From a virus (Duplodnaviria > Heunggongvirae > Uroviricota > Caudoviricetes > Demerecviridae), in the IMG/VR virus record IMGVR_UViG_2974607751_000001, positions 99,533-114,275 of that record: DNA of 14,743 nt, one strand, 5' to 3'. The position numbers and the translations under genes are program-made. Of the stretch, positions 631 through 14,251 are shown piece by piece (position 1 is the first letter of the stretch; each line of letters begins with the position of its first letter). The notes beneath the pieces are model-generated. The model did not search any database. It was not told where the DNA came from and was given only the letters and a program-made list of their open reading frames with translations.

Positions 631-1380
631 CTCCTAAGTTTCTAGGAAAACTCTCGTCAACTCAGGCGGTTTTCGTGTTCCTAGAAACTCTAGCAATAGG
701 CGGTTTAATACAGGGCGGTTATAGGGAGGGCGGTTATTTCTAGGAGACATTTTTCCAAAACACATTTCTGGAAATTACTATCGGATTTGCACACTGTGTT
801 TATAGAAATTTATGGTCGGATTTGCACAATTGCCTAAGTTTTCATGAACACATACTCTCCTGAAAAATAGCAGCATTATTTCGGGCCGAAGGCCCATGAT
901 TGCCTGAGTTTTTAGGGCCACAGGAATTTTCACTTGTCAAGCTATTTTGCTCCATTTTGCTAATAAAATTTCGCTTAATCTCCCCTTATCTCAATTCTAG
1001 CCAAAACATCCCCCATTATCCCCAAAAACGCAGCAAACCGGTGCTGAAGCACCACCACCGCTGCTCCTTCCGTAGTTCCTCCCAAAATCTCATCGGATTC
1101 GCACTTCCCCCCAAACTCACACAATCACACACCCTCTCACCGAAGTCACAAAAATCTTGTCGGATTCGCACTACTCATTCCTAGAAATTTCGTGTCGTAT
1201 TTGCACATATACGGCTGGATTTGTGCGCAGCACGAGTCTGCCCGAGTTTTTAGGAAAATTCATTGTCGGATTCGCACACTATAAAAATATTTCCCATCGG
1301 ATTTGCACACTACCAAAAATTGTCGGATTCGCACATACACGCCAGCACGTAATCCATGGAGGCAAATGTCGGATTTGCAC
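631..1380. repeat. Injection-stop-signal (iss)-like repeat region
   Basis: Non-coding, with interleaved direct repeats, located at the distal end of the pre-early DNA as in T5. Includes TCGGATTYGCAC x9, RGGCGGTT x4 (665, 699, 714, 729) and CCYRAGTTTYTAGG-like copies near 631, 831, 901 and 1239. Confidence 0.75.
781..1380 (+). repeat. 12-bp direct repeat family TCGGATTYGCAC
   Basis: Exact copies start at 781, 816, 1093, 1160, 1266, 1297, 1323 and 1369; a one-mismatch copy starts at 1195. All are on the same strand. Confidence 0.9.
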
Positions 1381-1430: not shown

Positions 1431-1560
1431 AATGAGATTGATTCGCATTTGAGAAGTTGAATGTGAATGATAATGATTCGCGTTTAGAAAGCGGAATGAG
1501 AATGGTTATCATTTGATTACCGGAATACGAATGAGTCGCATAATGAGAATGATTTGCATT
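1431..1560. promoter_or_regulatory. Four tandem Fur-box-like 19-mers
   Basis: AATGAGATTGATTCGCATT (1431), AATGATAATGATTCGCGTT (1466), AATGAGAATGGTTATCATT (1495), AATGAGAATGATTTGCATT (1542). All fit the 9-1-9 AATGA(T/G)AATnATT(A/C)TCATT pattern. Confidence 0.6.
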
Positions 1561-2058: not shown

Positions 2059-2154
2059 TTAATAGATGTATTGTTGAAAATAGCGGCGGATATTGTCGCC
2101 ACCGTTGGGATCATTAGCAGGCTTAATATTACCAACGAAAATATATAGTCTCAT
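2059..2154 (-). CDS. Small hypothetical protein (31 aa, MRLYIFVGNIKPANDPNGGDNIRRYFQQYIY)
   Basis: GGAG 10 nt upstream; its ATG overlaps the upstream TGA (ATGA coupling). Below the ORF-track length cutoff. Confidence 0.55.
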   Translation of the reverse strand: MRLYIFVGNIKPANDPNGGDNIRRYFQQYIY

Positions 2155-2288
2155 AGTGCCATCGCTCCTAAAATGAGAATGATTATTATTACCATTACAA
2201 GCCCGTTACTAAATCGTAAACGCTGGGAATGTTTCCCAGCGGTATTATTAGATTTATGGCTTTGCGTTTTTCGCCACCAGCTATTCAT
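2151..2288 (-). CDS. Small C-terminally membrane-anchored protein (45 aa)
   Basis: MNSWWRKTQSHKSNNTAGKHSQRLRFSNGLVMVIIIILILGAMAL; ATGA overlaps with both neighbours; hydrophobic C-terminus. Confidence 0.6.
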   Translation of the reverse strand: MNSWWRKTQSHKSNNTAGKHSQRLRFSNGLVMVIIIILILGAMAL

Positions 2289-5307: not shown

Positions 5308-5873
5308 CCTAAACGATAGTGGTTCTCACTTAGCCGATAGTTTCTTATAGTTATTATTTTTCTTTAATTTATAAGTATATTATATAATATGAAATAGTTA
5401 GTTGGCTAATAGGTTTTTAGATTACTAATAGTCTGCTAACTGTTCCGGACGTTACAATCCACCAGCGTGATTATCATCCTAGCGATTGTTAGTCCGCTAA
5501 CCAATCAACGCACGTCTAAACTTATTTGTCAATGAAAAATAACAGCAGAAAATACTTTTTTGAAAAATCAAGTGGATAACTTATTAAATTTCATTTTTGC
5601 TTTTTGTATAAGTTATTAACAGGGTCTAAAACGCTCTGTAAGCGATTCTAAGCGCCTCAAAGGAAAAGATAGGCAATCATAAGGGGTACACCGAGAAAAC
5701 CTCACCACGAGGATTTTAGATTTTGTCAAGTAGGGCAAAGCAAATATAAATGAAAAAATTACTTGCTAAAATGGTTGTTTTAGTGTTATTCGCGCGCCCG
5801 TTTCATTAAATTTAGTGCGCCGCTGGACGTTTGCGGGTAGTGGTTTTCTTTACTTTTCTTTACAAAAATAAGG

Positions 5874-6921: not shown

Positions 6922-7338
6922 ATGTCTAACGTTAAAACCGAAAAAACCGCAAAATTCTCTTGGAACGAAGAAAACACCGAAAAGGCTGTTTCTATGTATT
7001 CTGAAATGGTCGCTAAAAGCGGAATTGAATTTGCTAATAGTGACGGCTTAAAAGAGATTGCCGCCGCCGTTGGCGCTGCAAGTCCGGTGTCTGTACGTTC
7101 TAAACTGACAAGCGCAAAAGCGTACCAGAAAAGCGATAAACCGCGTAAAGTTGGCGGCGGGTCTAGTGTCCGTAAAGCTCACTATGTGCGCGTCATTGCT
7201 AAACACGCCATTGATAGCGGCATTGTAAAAGACGCTGACGATCTGGCAAGTCTGGAAAGTGCAAAACTGGAAACGCTGGACGCCGTAGCGCAATTGTTAG
7301 GCGTAGCGGAGGAAGTGAAACAGGCCGCAGGTGAATAA
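6922..7338 (+). CDS. A2: A2 protein (DNA-binding, needed for second-step transfer), 138 aa
   Basis: GGAG RBS before the ATG at 6922 (the track's TTG at 6904 is unlikely); FSWNEENT...SVRSKLTSAKAYQK signature; size and position upstream of A1. Confidence 0.9.
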   Translation: MSNVKTEKTAKFSWNEENTEKAVSMYSEMVAKSGIEFANSDGLKEIAAAVGAASPVSVRSKLTSAKAYQKSDKPRKVGGGSSVRKAHYVRVIAKHAIDSGIVKDADDLASLESAKLETLDAVAQLLGVAEEVKQAAGE

Positions 7339-7732: not shown

Positions 7733-9400
7733 ATGAATATTTCCGCAGAAAAACAAGCTCAAATTCTGAAAATGGCTGCTGACTTTAATTTCTATGGTAA
7801 GCGTTTACGCGCTACTAAATTGGAAGTTTGCGACGATATTTCAAAAGCTGTTTATGATACGCCGAAACATTCAACCGCAATCTGCGATTGGCTGGAAGCA
7901 AATAAGCCAGCGAAACCGAAAGCGGCGAAAGCTGAAAAGGCGATTAAAAATGATGATCGCCCCGAAGCGGCGGGAATTGTTTCTAGTACCGTTGAACAAT
8001 GGGAAGTTAAATCCGGTCGCCGTTTTATTCTAACGTCGATTCAAAATAATACTTTCCCGCATAAAAACTTTTTAGCGGCGCTTGTTAATTACGCTGAATA
8101 TTGCGGCGCTGAATTGCTAATCAGTAAATTCATTTATAATAAAAATGGATTCCAGAACGGCGACGGCAGCAAAGAAAAAATTAAATATGATTCAGCGTTT
8201 GATAAATATATCTGCGATAAAAACGTATTTTTAAATAATCGCCGCTTTGCTTTCATGTCTGAAATTAACGTATTACCAACGGCAGATTATCCGCTTTCAG
8301 GATTCGCAGAAACCGCCACGGCTTTAAATATTGACGGCCTCGCAATTGGTGCGGCAAAAATTACCGCTGAAAGTGTGCCAGCGTTAAAAGGTGAAATTGT
8401 GCGCCGTATGTATTCAACCGGAACGGCGACACTTAAAAACTACATTCAGCAAAAAGCAGGACAAAAAGCCGAGGCTTTACATAATTTCGGCGCTTTGCTG
8501 GTAGAATTTGACGACGACGGCGAATTTTTCGTTCGCCAGCTTGAAACAATGGACGAAAGCGGAATGTTCTATGATCTGAATATTTGCGCTACCGCTACCG
8601 GATGTTATGAAACATCGGGCCATGTTCTAGGCTTGCAATATGGCGATATTCACGCCGAAAAATTAGATGATGATTGCGCCGTTGCGTCATGGGCTAGTGA
8701 AAACAGCTTGCTTGATATTCTCAAGCCTAAATATCAGTTTATTCATGATGTGCATGATTTTACATCCCGCAATCATCATAACCGCGCTAGTGGTGTATTC
8801 CTTGCTAAACAGTACGCCGCAGGACGTGACAAGGTTTTAGATGATCTTATCGATACTGGACGCGTTTTAGAGTCTATGGAGCGTGATTTCTCTCAAACAA
8901 TCATTGTGGAATCTAACCATGATTTAGCATTATCCCGCTGGCTTGATGATCGTAACGCTAACATTAAGGACGATCCCGCAAACGCCGAGCTATATCACAG
9001 CCTAAACGCTGCGATTTACGCCGCAATTGCAAAACAAGATGATACCTTTAACGTGCTAGATTACGCCTTGCGTAGTGTCGCAGGTTGCGAATTTAACGCT
9101 ATTTTCCTGACGACAGACCAATCATTCAAAATCGCTGGCATTGAGTGCGGCGTACATGGTCACAATGGCATTAACGGCAGTCGGGGCAATCCTAAGCAGT
9201 TTAAAAAGTTGGGACGCCTTAACACTGGTCACACTCACACGGCTAGCATTTACGGCGGCGTTTATACTGCTGGCGTGGCGGGGTCGCTTGATATGGGTTA
9301 CAACGTGGGCGCGTCAAGCTGGACGCAAACGCATTTAATTACCTATGCAAACGGGCAACGTACTTTGATTGACTTCAAAAACGGTAAATTCTTTGCATAA
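7733..9400 (+). CDS. A1: A1 protein (host DNA degradation and second-step transfer; metallophosphoesterase-like nuclease), 555 aa
   Basis: AGGAG RBS; calcineurin-like motifs GDIH, HDVHD, SNHD, HGH and GHTH; size and synteny as in T5. Confidence 0.93.
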   Translation: MNISAEKQAQILKMAADFNFYGKRLRATKLEVCDDISKAVYDTPKHSTAICDWLEANKPAKPKAAKAEKAIKNDDRPEAAGIVSSTVEQWEVKSGRRFILTSIQNNTFPHKNFLAALVNYAEYCGAELLISKFIYNKNGFQNGDGSKEKIKYDSAFDKYICDKNVFLNNRRFAFMSEINVLPTADYPLSGFAETATALNIDGLAIGAAKITAESVPALKGEIVRRMYSTGTATLKNYIQQKAGQKAEALHNFGALLVEFDDDGEFFVRQLETMDESGMFYDLNICATATGCYETSGHVLGLQYGDIHAEKLDDDCAVASWASENSLLDILKPKYQFIHDVHDFTSRNHHNRASGVFLAKQYAAGRDKVLDDLIDTGRVLESMERDFSQTIIVESNHDLALSRWLDDRNANIKDDPANAELYHSLNAAIYAAIAKQDDTFNVLDYALRSVAGCEFNAIFLTTDQSFKIAGIECGVHGHNGINGSRGNPKQFKKLGRLNTGHTHTASIYGGVYTAGVAGSLDMGYNVGASSWTQTHLITYANGQRTLIDFKNGKFFA

Positions 9401-9453: not shown

Positions 9454-9732
9454 ATGGCTATTAAAATTAATCTTCCAGTTAGTAAAAACGCCCCTGATAC
9501 ATGGGCAATTGATACCATAATTCATGGTACTGTATACCGTAATTTAAAAGATGGTGACTGTTATATTTATCAAAATGAAAATAATGGCCATACTTATATA
9601 ATTGAATCAGGAGATTTTTATTCCTTTGAAACTGATTATGAAGCAAAGGAATATTTACAAGATAATGATATTCCTGATGTATGGAAAGAAACTAACCTTG
9701 CTTTTGTAGTGAGTTTAGAAATTAATAAATAA
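9454..9732 (+). CDS. AT-rich hypothetical protein (92 aa, acidic)
   Basis: AAGGT RBS, ATG start, fills the gap between A1 and the 130-aa gene. Confidence 0.8.
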   Translation: MAIKINLPVSKNAPDTWAIDTIIHGTVYRNLKDGDCYIYQNENNGHTYIIESGDFYSFETDYEAKEYLQDNDIPDVWKETNLAFVVSLEINK

Positions 9733-10246: not shown

Positions 10247-10981
10247 ATGAATAAAGTTAACATGAATATTACCCGCACTTTCCCGCATATTTCCCGCGTT
10301 ATGATTTGGGATTTAGACGGAACGATTATAAATTCTTTCCATCGTGTAGCGCCTTGCTTTGATAACGCTGGCAATCTGGATTTAGTTAAGTATTCCCGCG
10401 AAGCCTGCAAACATGATTTAATTATGCAAGATTCTTTATTGCCATTGGTTGAATATATGCGCCAATGTATGAATGATGCAAATACATTAAATATTATTTG
10501 TACCGCGCGCCTAATGTCTAAAAGCGATTATTTTTATTTACGCAAACAAGGCTTGCGCGGGCGCGGTAATAGTAATATTCGCGTATTTTCCCGCGATACA
10601 TTACACAAATACTTTGAAGCGGATAAGGTTAGCGAAATATACCACAGCAAAGACGCTGTATATAAATCTTATTACTTTGAACTGTTTAAACAGCTATATC
10701 CTAATGCTGATTTTACAATGATTGATGATCATAAAGGTGTATTATCGGCGGCGGCAAGTGCTGGATTTAAAACGCTGGACGCTCAAGCCGTTAATGATAT
10801 CCTATCAATCGGGGTAACATTGATTGGTGAAACCTTTATCGATGAATCGTTAGACGAGGATAATGATTATCAATTCCTAGCCGATAGATTAAAAATGTGT
10901 TGGGAAGGTATGACCGAGGAAGAACGCGCGGAATATAGTACCACACCGCAACAATACATTGAGAAATTAAAAGTTGCCTAA
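10247..10981 (+). CDS. dmp: Deoxynucleoside-5'-monophosphatase (HAD family), 244 aa
   Basis: HAD motif I WDLDGT, ICTAR and IDDH motifs; last gene of the pre-early operon as in T5. Confidence 0.93.
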   Translation: MNKVNMNITRTFPHISRVMIWDLDGTIINSFHRVAPCFDNAGNLDLVKYSREACKHDLIMQDSLLPLVEYMRQCMNDANTLNIICTARLMSKSDYFYLRKQGLRGRGNSNIRVFSRDTLHKYFEADKVSEIYHSKDAVYKSYYFELFKQLYPNADFTMIDDHKGVLSAAASAGFKTLDAQAVNDILSIGVTLIGETFIDESLDEDNDYQFLADRLKMCWEGMTEEERAEYSTTPQQYIEKLKVA

Positions 10982-11033: not shown

Positions 11034-11139
11034 AGCTTGCTAAGTACCGGGGCGGTAATGAGACTCATTCTCATCTAGGGAACCTCTGGGCACACCTTCA
11101 TGTGTAATCTTATGAAATTTGGCAAAAGTCAAATTAGCG

Positions 11140-12119: not shown

Positions 12120-12386
12120 TTACAAGTGACCAGATTGTTCTAGTTTAAATTTACAATCGCCATATTTGAGATCAAACTGTGACAAATCCCACCACCCAAA
12201 CTTAGTGCGTAACTGAGTTTTAGGGAATCGGTAGCCCACAGTACGTGCGTCTCGAATATCTAAAGCGTAGTGTTCTTCACCAACATGACCATAAGACTTC
12301 ACATATGCCTTACAAAATGGCTCGGGAGCTGGTACACAACCAGTCAACACTACTGCTGCAACTACGATGGCTAGTAACTTTTTCAT
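12120..12386 (-). CDS. llp: Receptor-blocking (lytic conversion) lipoprotein, 88 aa
   Basis: Signal peptide with lipobox LTGC (Cys17); divergent from and adjacent to the RBP gene as in T5/BF23. Confidence 0.9.
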   Translation of the reverse strand: MKKLLAIVVAAVVLTGCVPAPEPFCKAYVKSYGHVGEEHYALDIRDARTVGYRFPKTQLRTKFGWWDLSQFDLKYGDCKFKLEQSGHL

Positions 12387-12469: not shown

Positions 12470-14251
12470 ATGAGTTTTTTCGCAGGAAAATTTAGTGATG
12501 GTAAAACTGTATTATCTCTAAACGCTGCTAATGGTGGTGATATAAATCAGCACTACTCTCCAAATACTAATAGTATTTTCCACTCAGATATGCCATTTGT
12601 CCTAGTTGATGGGACTTATGAGGCTGCTCTAGGTGATGCAGGTAATGGGTACTTTGTTACTCAGATGCCATGGGATATTATAAATATTAAATCCAATGAT
12701 CCTGGTAGAGTTATATTAACTGCTATTGAGATAAACGGTACTCATAGGGGTTTCCTTAATGGTACCCAATCTCAGGTTGGTCAGTTCTTAACATTCTTCG
12801 AAGATCAACCACGTGCTGGTGCTGAACTAGCTATAACATCTGCTTTTGCAATCGGTGATAGTTTAGCTCATGGTACTTATATCTATAATGGTGGTCTTGG
12901 TCATGAGGAATCTATTGCTAGGCAGGGAACTGGTGGTACTTTACTACAATCTTCCGGTTTCCAGATCTTTAGACCTGGTGGTGTTTCCGCAGGTGAAGCT
13001 ATTTCCAGAGCCTGGGGATTAATGGGCTTTCCTACTGGTGTTTCTACTGTTCCTATAGATGGTGGTAACGCCGATTATTGGGAACCTAACTGGCAAGCGC
13101 CTGTTGGTTCTGCTGGTAGAGGCCATGATTGGTTTTACGTTTGTAGTTCTAATATTCGTGGCTTCGCAGGTAAAAAAGGCGTACTACCGGATAACGTAAA
13201 CGTTATTTATCAATCTCCTGCGTATCCAGAAAAAATATATGTTTGTAGAGGTTCTACTTCTAATATGGCTGCTCAGTCTGCTAGAAAGGTGTATGTACAG
13301 GACTGGTATAACGTTACGCCAACTAAAGTTATTTGGTACGTGCTAAATCTGCGCTATTCTAATGGTAGTATGGGAGTTTCTGGTAATCCATTTACTGGTT
13401 CAGATATCTTAATATCACCATCTAACTTTACTATTAAAGGTGTTAGTCTACCAAATACAGGCTATAAATTTATTAACCAGAATGCTTTCGGAAACTTAGG
13501 CTATCGCCCTGATATGGAATATGTTGGTAATAACGCTGCGTATACCGGAGTTTTTGGTGATAATACTGCACGATGTGAATTCATCGGCTCTAGTAATGGT
13601 GGGTTATGGTCGCCCGTTAACTATGGGGGTGCAGCTTCTCAAATTAGCTTATATAAATTTGGTGTAGGTAAACAATGGTATGTAGATACTAATACTAACT
13701 CCATTGGTAATGAACATGGATCTGTGTGGAGTCCTAGTACTGTACCTCTCAGATTATTCCCAGGCAACGTTGCAAGTACTTATGTAGGGGACGATATAAC
13801 TCCATCCTACCCTGGTGCTGGTGACTTCTACACACCTTTGGCCACAGTTTGGTTGGGATTACCAAATGCTCACTCTACTGTTATATTAACTACTGAAGTT
13901 ATTATGGGTAATCTTAATACTGCTGGTATGCCTGTACGTACTTATGGTGGTAGTGCTTGGCAGGTACAAGGCAGACGTCAACAAAGTTATACAGCTGGTG
14001 ATGGTGTATTCCATCAGATTCTTACTCTGCCACCTGGCTATCTAGTACCATATCACAGCACAACTTCCTATAGTTATACCCAAACGTGGGCTAGTAGACC
14101 TGATGAGATGGCTTTTCGTAGAAATGGGTATATTTATACAGTAAAAAACCTTGGTAATGGTAATGTTGAGTTGGGTGTTATTATTCATGCTGCAGAAGCA
14201 GCTGCTATCTTCTTACCAAGACTACGTGTAACAGTTCAACGCCTAACCTAA
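12470..14251 (+). CDS. oad: Receptor-binding protein (pb5/Oad/Hrs family), 593 aa; probably the BtuB-binding class
   Basis: MSFFAGK N-terminus, IFHSDM motif and ...VQRLT C-terminus typical of pb5; located between llp and terS. Confidence 0.92.

Follow-up and report, generated by a model that had tools for sequence, protein, structure and literature searches.

Host Fur operators are predicted in the direct repeat C block beside the first-step transfer boundary of a T5-like phage

Four 19-bp units in the injection stop region of a T5-like phage match the operator of Fur, the ferric uptake regulator and iron repressor of the host, and we consider that they are probably genuine host Fur operators situated in a direct repeat C block of the T5 type. 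Judging from these sequence comparisons, Fur is also likely to be their ligand in vivo. Papers published between 2020 and 2026 describe the stop of T5 DNA transfer at 8% of the genome as mechanistically unexplained (including 10.1101/866236 and 10.64898/2026.04.02.716235). As the stop signal acts before phage gene expression, its reader must be a host or a virion protein.

Results and discussion

Genomic setting of the array

The window, that is the whole stretch of 14,743 nucleotides analysed here, forms the final 14.7 kb of a 114,275-bp phage record and is oriented opposite to the standard T5 map. Its DNA is 80-95% identical to that of hundreds of Salmonella and Escherichia T5-like phages, and in public sequencing runs it is present only in a probable source run and as small-share contigs. 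The genes of the window that are referred to below are as follows.

About 6922-7338: A2, pre-early DNA-binding protein
7733-9400: A1
10247-10981: dmp-like gene
12470-14251: receptor-binding tail protein

The last of these is adjoined by a Cor-like superinfection exclusion gene (12120-12386, minus strand).

The segment 243-1810, flanked by convergent transcription units, holds no credible gene and is by homology the counterpart of T5 Repeat Region 3, or injection stop signal (iss), described by Davison as a conserved, unexplained cluster of repeats and palindromes (10.1101/866236). Besides the array of four units at 1431-1560, it contains the following elements.

781-1380, plus strand: nine copies of the 12-bp repeat TCGGATTYGCAC, which is direct repeat D of T5 (annotated in AY587007.1)
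1384-1391: nick-site motif AGCGCAGG, whose T5 homologue is annotated 'major single-stranded nick 1, 7.9%'
1388-1393 and 1405-1410: arms of a short hairpin after the nick motif, homologue of T5 palindrome J
1594-1602, 1606-1614, 1655-1663 and 1667-1675: DnaA-box pairs read from the sequence, directly beside the array
1684-1703: LexA box read from the sequence, in the same cassette as the DnaA boxes

The order D repeats, nick motif, four units and DnaA boxes, all within the terminal repeat, agrees with the initial annotation, which had placed the array between the nick site and a DnaA/LexA cassette. The four units thus lie 40-170 bp from the 7.9% nick, on the injected side. DnaA boxes in the equivalent block of T5 have been described by Davison (10.1101/866236). 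At 299-327, outside the terminal repeat, a near-consensus promoter (TTGACA, 17 bp, TATCAT with TG) is directed into the repeat region and has no credible ORF downstream.

Four units with the score and symmetry of Fur operators

A Fur weight matrix was built from 17 footprinted or gel-shifted sites of E. coli K-12, with sequences extracted from NC_000913.3 and site coordinates in the 9-1-9 register taken from Table 4 of Chen et al. 2007 (PMC2189734). The expected palindrome was seen in all 17 extracted sites, and these proven sites scored 17.0-28.2 bits when each was left out in turn. Applied to the array, the matrix gave the following sites.

1431..1449: Fur-like unit 1, AATGAGATTGATTCGCATT, 19.2 bits; member of repeat family D3 and homologue of a T5 direct repeat C copy
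1460..1478: weaker Fur-like site, 12.4 bits, which overlaps unit 2 and starts 6 bp upstream of it
1466..1484: Fur-like unit 2, AATGATAATGATTCGCGTT, 21.3 bits; reference copy of D3
1495..1513: Fur-like unit 3, AATGAGAATGGTTATCATT, 26.1 bits
1524..1542: degenerate unit, AATACGAATGAGTCGCATA, 7.7 bits; counterparts in close relatives range from below 10 to 14.4 bits
1542..1560: Fur-like unit 4, AATGAGAATGATTTGCATT, 22.4 bits; member of D3

The four 19-mers were found exactly at the positions at which they had initially been annotated (1431-1449, 1466-1484, 1495-1513 and 1542-1560), and the 9-1-9 pattern ascribed to them is borne out by the arms, as each unit is an imperfect inverted repeat with 6-7 of 9 arm positions complementary. 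Together the units make up a four-copy direct-repeat family (D3, 37 nt, spacings 35, 29 and 47) whose members are 68-84% identical to one another. Their scores of 19.2-26.1 bits fall within the range of the proven sites, and unit 3 shares 18 of 19 bases with a footprinted site of the fecI operator. The non-coding character that had been claimed for the array also stands: beyond the lack of a credible gene in 243-1810, the length of the array varies among relatives in steps of 23 and 29 bp, which no reading frame could tolerate. All unit-to-unit spacings in 1431-1578 of the window and in the relatives (23, 29, 35 and 47 bp) leave a remainder of 5 on division by 6; units differ from one another by entire hexamers, but none is in hexamer phase with another.

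The initial annotation had proposed a comparison of the matrix scores with AT-rich background, and we made it with two null models. In first-order Markov simulations of 114 kb with the same composition, 0.13 sites of at least 19 bits and 0.017 sites of at least 21 bits were expected per genome, against 7 and 4 observed, respectively. In dinucleotide shuffles of 1381-1593 a score of 17 bits was attained in 0.4% of the trials, whereas the real region has four such sites. Since the units lie far above both the Markov and the shuffle nulls, they are clearly better than AT-rich background. Counting matches to the classical 19-mer GATAATGATAATCATTATC was uninformative, as the units reach merely 13-14 of 19, unremarkable beside matches in coding regions; the 9-1-9 register is the right one. 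The consensus motifs of ArgR, CRP, IHF and PurR probably do not fit the units. An Rfam search of the array region for RNA elements returned no match.

We also considered whether the array could be a Fur-repressed sigma-70 promoter, with which most, though not all, E. coli Fur clusters overlap. No convincing promoter overlaps it (the candidates have 9 of 12 matches and are no commoner than in shuffles) and it lies between convergent units, so the canonical arrangement of a Fur-repressed promoter was rejected. Compared with the Fur operator clusters of E. coli (fecI, gpmA, ryhB, fhuA and entC), the phage array has the same 19-bp 9-1-9 sites, the same bit range, the same 6-bp partners and the same clustering of several sites within 100-150 bp (PMC2189734). 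It differs from them in standing off any convincing promoter, between convergent units of a virulent phage, and in being composed of polar direct repeats with conserved flanks, half of which carry a G at +5.

Identity with direct repeat C of T5

The array region aligns with T5 at 76% over 370 bp, and the four units are, by this homology, copies 1-4 of direct repeat C of the present phage, with palindromes E, G, H and I. The corresponding features of T5 (AY587007.1) are as follows.

9468-9492: direct repeat C copy 1, with palindrome E
9526-9550: direct repeat C copy 2
9571-9601: direct repeat C copy 3, with palindromes G and H
9607-9637: direct repeat C copy 4, with palindrome I
9661-9668: 'major single-stranded nick 1, 7.9%', preceded by palindrome J
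From 9672: direct repeat D

Repeat Region 3 of T5 agrees with the window in the position and order of its components (D repeats, nick motif with palindrome J, C repeats and DnaA-box block) and is a true homologue. In AY587007.1 the Fur matrix peaks at 9473 (21.6 bits), 9531 (10.5), 9577 (28.8) and 9612 (23.6), in each case inside an annotated C copy, with the 28.8-bit site in copy 3. The two phages differ in the number of strong units, which is four here and three, plus two weak ones, in T5. Davison gave 9618, at 7.9% of the T5 genome, as the nominal boundary of first-step transfer and suggested that the palindromes are possibly cut by A1/A2 (10.1101/866236); position 9618 falls inside direct repeat C copy 4.

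In the literature the T5 block is a catalogue of repeats without a ligand, and neither the Davison preprint, from which iron is also absent, nor the other T5 papers examined mention Fur. Combined Fur/T5 searches, with subscription journals mostly outside their scope, found no paper tying the T5 repeats to Fur. The repeats themselves are thus already catalogued, and what is new is their reading as Fur sites.

Conservation and pairing of the sites across T5-like phages

With A1 as a probe, 36 T5-like loci were collected from IMG/VR. The set was extended by Pectobacterium phage My1 and a Klebsiella phage, whose A1 proteins are 65% and 73% identical, respectively, and by contigs found via the D repeat. 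The bounds of each array were set independently of Fur, by the last D repeat on one side and the first DnaA box on the other. Each of the 27 distinct arrays, which come from T5, from Salmonella, E. coli and Klebsiella phages and from Pectobacterium phage My1, contains 3-6 sites of at least 17 bits and 4-9 sites of at least 10 bits within 160-440 bp. Exact Fur consensus sequences occur among the relatives, for example AATGATAATCATTATCATT (locus L026) and AATGATAATGATTATCATT (locus L018). The strong units (n=107) represent 39 distinct 19-mers that vary mainly at the centre, -4, +4 and +5, in a logo biased towards the Fur pattern because the units were picked by Fur score; the centre and +/-4 are the least informative positions of the Fur matrix.

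The array region of this phage is 72-78% identical to that of the T5 group. Simulated neutral drift at 20-25% left 0.3-0.6 strong sites, and the probability of keeping three was about 1% or less. As every array has three or more strong sites against the 0.3-0.6 expected under drift, the sites are under selection.

The arrangement of the sites also resembles that of known operators. In Chen et al. each of the eleven footprinted operators of E. coli contains pairs of sites offset by 6 bp (PMC2189734), and such pairs are found once in the window (1460 and 1466) and two or three times in most relatives, with scores such as 18.2 and 24.5 bits or 16.8 and 24.2 bits. They are made of in-phase hexamers (e.g. 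AATGCG-AATGAT-AATGAT), a pairing for which a protein that binds palindromes in general would have no need. The sequence ATTCGCATT is found in half of the strong units; its G at +5 deviates from Fur at an informative position and restores the core GATTCGCA found in the D repeats, which may point to a second ligand or to another one. In addition, the flank TTTARAAAGYGGA is conserved outside the 19 bp read by Fur, My1 included. Taken together, the G at +5, the conserved flank and the spacings of 5 modulo 6 leave room for a second ligand.

Other Fur-like sites in the terminal repeat

Of the ten sites that reach at least 16 bits in the 114-kb genome, nine lie in the terminal-repeat block of the window, whose left end is placed near 11091 by homology. 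Those beyond the array are listed below.

2172..2196: pair of Fur-like sites at 2172 and 2178, 26.1 and 18.1 bits, within a 45-codon minus-strand ORF of the pre-early operon
5312..5330: Fur-like site, 16.0 bits, in Repeat Region 2, where it adjoins the DnaA/LexA cassette's inverted copy
10856..10874: Fur-like site, 20.9 bits, within the dmp-like gene (3' part of the coding sequence)
11057..11075: Fur-like palindrome near the inferred left genome terminus, 17.9 bits

Each of these sites has a counterpart in most relatives. The counterpart of the 2172 site scores 26-29 bits in most of them and is absent in T5, and that of the 5312 site mostly scores 16-19 bits (21.9 in one relative and 17.6 in T5). 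At 10856 the counterparts reach 21-25 bits in every relative whose locus covers the place, T5 included. In My1, and in relatives whose records include the termini, the palindrome of 11057 is found 16-17 bp away from the physical left end, and T5 has unrelated sequence at the equivalent place. Codon constraints may be partly responsible for the two extra sites in coding DNA. The 45-codon ORF (2151-2288, minus strand) has a very hydrophobic C-terminus, VMVIIIILILGAMAL, and its comparison with PHROG gave no match.

Different arrays in the same slot in Vibrio and other lineages

The order of elements is shared by Vibrio phage BBMuffin, whose A1 is 33% identical: it has D repeats, GCGCAGG as its nick motif, DnaA boxes in pairs and two LexA boxes (L054:30-265 and L054:457-563). 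Judged by this distribution, the part of the stop region made of the D repeat, nick motif and DnaA/LexA boxes is far older than the Fur array. The slot between the nick motif and the DnaA boxes of BBMuffin contains no Fur-like site of at least 12 bits. Instead, it is occupied by nine tandem 8-bp units (L054:284-355) whose agreement with the MetJ box AGACGTCT extends to 54 of 72 positions, where the null reached 36 at most. MetJ operators, which are tandem 8-bp AGACGTCT boxes, differ from the Fur array in both motif and protein, and none is present in the window studied here, where six consecutive boxes match at best 24 of 48 positions. Two metagenomic T5-like contigs (L064, 960-1130, and L098) carry AGCTNAATTAGAT units followed by a perfect 18-bp palindrome, GACGTTTACGTAAACGTC, in the slot, and Vibrio phage 70E35-3 carries AT-rich units of about 60 bp (L101:4800-5020).

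As Vibrio T5-like phages have other arrays in the slot, two-step transfer cannot involve Fur universally. The Fur protein of Vibrio shares the specificity of the enterobacterial one, so the lack of a Fur array in the Vibrio slot counts against Fur. The comparison suggests that the slot accepts operators of co-repressor-dependent host repressors. The match to MetJ in BBMuffin is the second, and an independent, match to an operator of a host repressor, which makes host repressors a more economical reading than a phage protein.

Candidate ligands other than Fur

The units could be sites for a phage protein, A2 being the likeliest, alone or with A1, whose binding restarts transfer, with the likeness to Fur a case of mimicry or competition. 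We regard this as unlikely, though several observations speak for it. A2 is a DNA-binding dimer that is essential for second-step transfer and for which the literature names no target (10.1101/866236; 10.64898/2026.04.02.716235). The GATTYGC core that the initial annotation had described as shared between units and repeats is indeed found, as GATTCGC or GATTTGC, in units 1, 2 and 4 and in all nine TCGGATTYGCAC repeats. Its extension to the 8-mer GATTYGCA is common to the same units and the D repeats, the latter being conserved as far as the Vibrio phages. The deviation of half of the strong units from Fur towards the D-repeat core, and the conserved flanks beyond the Fur footprint, point in the same direction. 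Against this, a match of 20-30 bits to the matrix of another protein cannot be chance, and no phage-encoded protein or domain of the Fur family was detected in the genome, while the control genomes all gave matches. Moreover, the A2 motifs VRSKL, YQK and VRKxHYVR persist in the Vibrio phages while the array in the slot switches to MetJ-like or other sequences.

A2 belongs to no Pfam family and its PHROG label reads only 'DNA binding protein'. For modelling with AlphaFold, 47 distant homologues were gathered and 36 sequences were aligned. The resulting confident model (pLDDT 89.5) has two small helical domains, at about 16-64 and 85-137, with a basic, glycine-rich linker between them, and it has no significant match to any solved structure (best E = 0.14 in the profile search of solved structures; E of at least 1 with Foldseek against PDB). 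Lacking a match in sequence or fold, A2 is a possible ligand to which these searches add no positive support. A2, proposed as an alternative ligand in the initial annotation, is now a less likely candidate than Fur.

It is quite unlikely that cytoplasmic binding is irrelevant and that the array works as DNA in its own right or via proteins of the virion or of packaging, either as a bendable or phased AT-rich segment or as a recognition site, stalling the DNA in the tail or portal by the nick or serving the terminase or end formation. Its position 40-170 bp from a conserved nick motif and near the nominal 7.9% boundary would suit such a role, as would the related palindrome 16-17 bp from the physical left end of several relatives and the presence of some repeat array in the slot of every lineage, whatever its sequence. 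However, this leaves the specific Fur consensus, and the MetJ box of BBMuffin, unexplained; the spacings of 23, 29, 35 and 47 bp give no constant helical phase, and T5 is without the terminal palindrome.

That the Fur likeness is a functionless accident of AT-rich tandem duplication is scarcely credible: the four units are mutual copies and hence not independent draws, and the chance of one site of about 19 bits per genome is roughly 0.1, but units 68-84% identical score highly throughout, the arrays keep at least three strong sites even where A1 identity falls to 65%, conservation extends to independent Fur-like sites at other places of the terminal repeat, and array conservation and the drift simulation thereby already contradict it.

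Proposed action of Fur at the transfer boundary

If Fur is the ligand, Fe2+-Fur dimers should load on the 9-1-9 sites once the phage DNA has entered the cytoplasm of an iron-replete cell, with overlapping dimers at units extended by in-phase hexamers. The Fur, DnaA and LexA sites stand in series just downstream of the terminator of the minus-strand pre-early operon, and Fur together with the proteins bound at the adjoining DnaA and LexA boxes might form a complex of pre-existing host proteins before any phage protein is made. Our leading guess, which is speculative, is that this complex would clamp the DNA at the transfer boundary or form a roadblock there, for example to RNA polymerase that reads out of the minus-strand pre-early operon in the direction of DNA that has yet to leave the tail. 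How far the complex is occupied would follow the iron status of the host. Iron-dependent gating of second-step transfer, as proposed in the initial annotation, is a hypothetical consequence of such binding. The model in which membrane-bound DnaA holds the DNA at DnaA boxes, put forward by Davison (10.1101/866236), likewise has host proteins read the stop in a shared non-coding block. It differs in the host protein and in the sub-block, and Fur is cytoplasmic and not membrane-bound; both are models.

We put forward as highly doubtful the wider proposition that host repressors whose DNA binding is restricted to a healthy, replete cell use the stop region as a landing pad. Fur with Fe2+ would serve the enterobacterial lineages and MetJ with SAM a Vibrio lineage, with LexA and DnaA common to all; the complex would hold or gate the DNA at the 8% boundary, and pause or release would read the iron, methionine and DNA-damage status of the host before the remaining phage genome is committed.

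Two possible roles are not favoured by the data. A link to the receptor was rejected, as the array is unchanged across classes of receptor-binding protein that are only about 29% identical. The receptor-binding protein of this phage shares only about 29% identity with T5 pb5, so its receptor is probably other than FhuA, while a relative with a receptor-binding protein of the T5 type (L006) has the same four-unit array; being alike in both classes, the array does not track the receptor. The second role, suggested in the initial annotation, was sequestration of Fur leading to altered receptor expression. Fur is present in thousands of copies per cell. Sequestration is hence unlikely on stoichiometry and also on timing, as T5 degrades the host DNA and shuts off host transcription within minutes (10.64898/2026.04.02.716235). 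The main text on a genome-wide T5 screen invokes fur only for over-expression hits (FeoB and YdiE), via fhuA repression, and describes no fur loss-of-function hit (PMC7553319). As far as that text goes, Fur is probably not essential for infection.

Significance

The reading of direct repeat C as Fur operators names a specific, abundant and dispensable host protein for a signal that is read before phage genes are expressed, and the predicted operators fill the block beside the nick. If true, this would be an unusual use of the regulator's operators, away from any promoter and in a phage that is strictly virulent. Even if binding in vitro alone were to hold, it would still be a useful annotation for repeats that have been catalogued without a ligand since AY587007.1.
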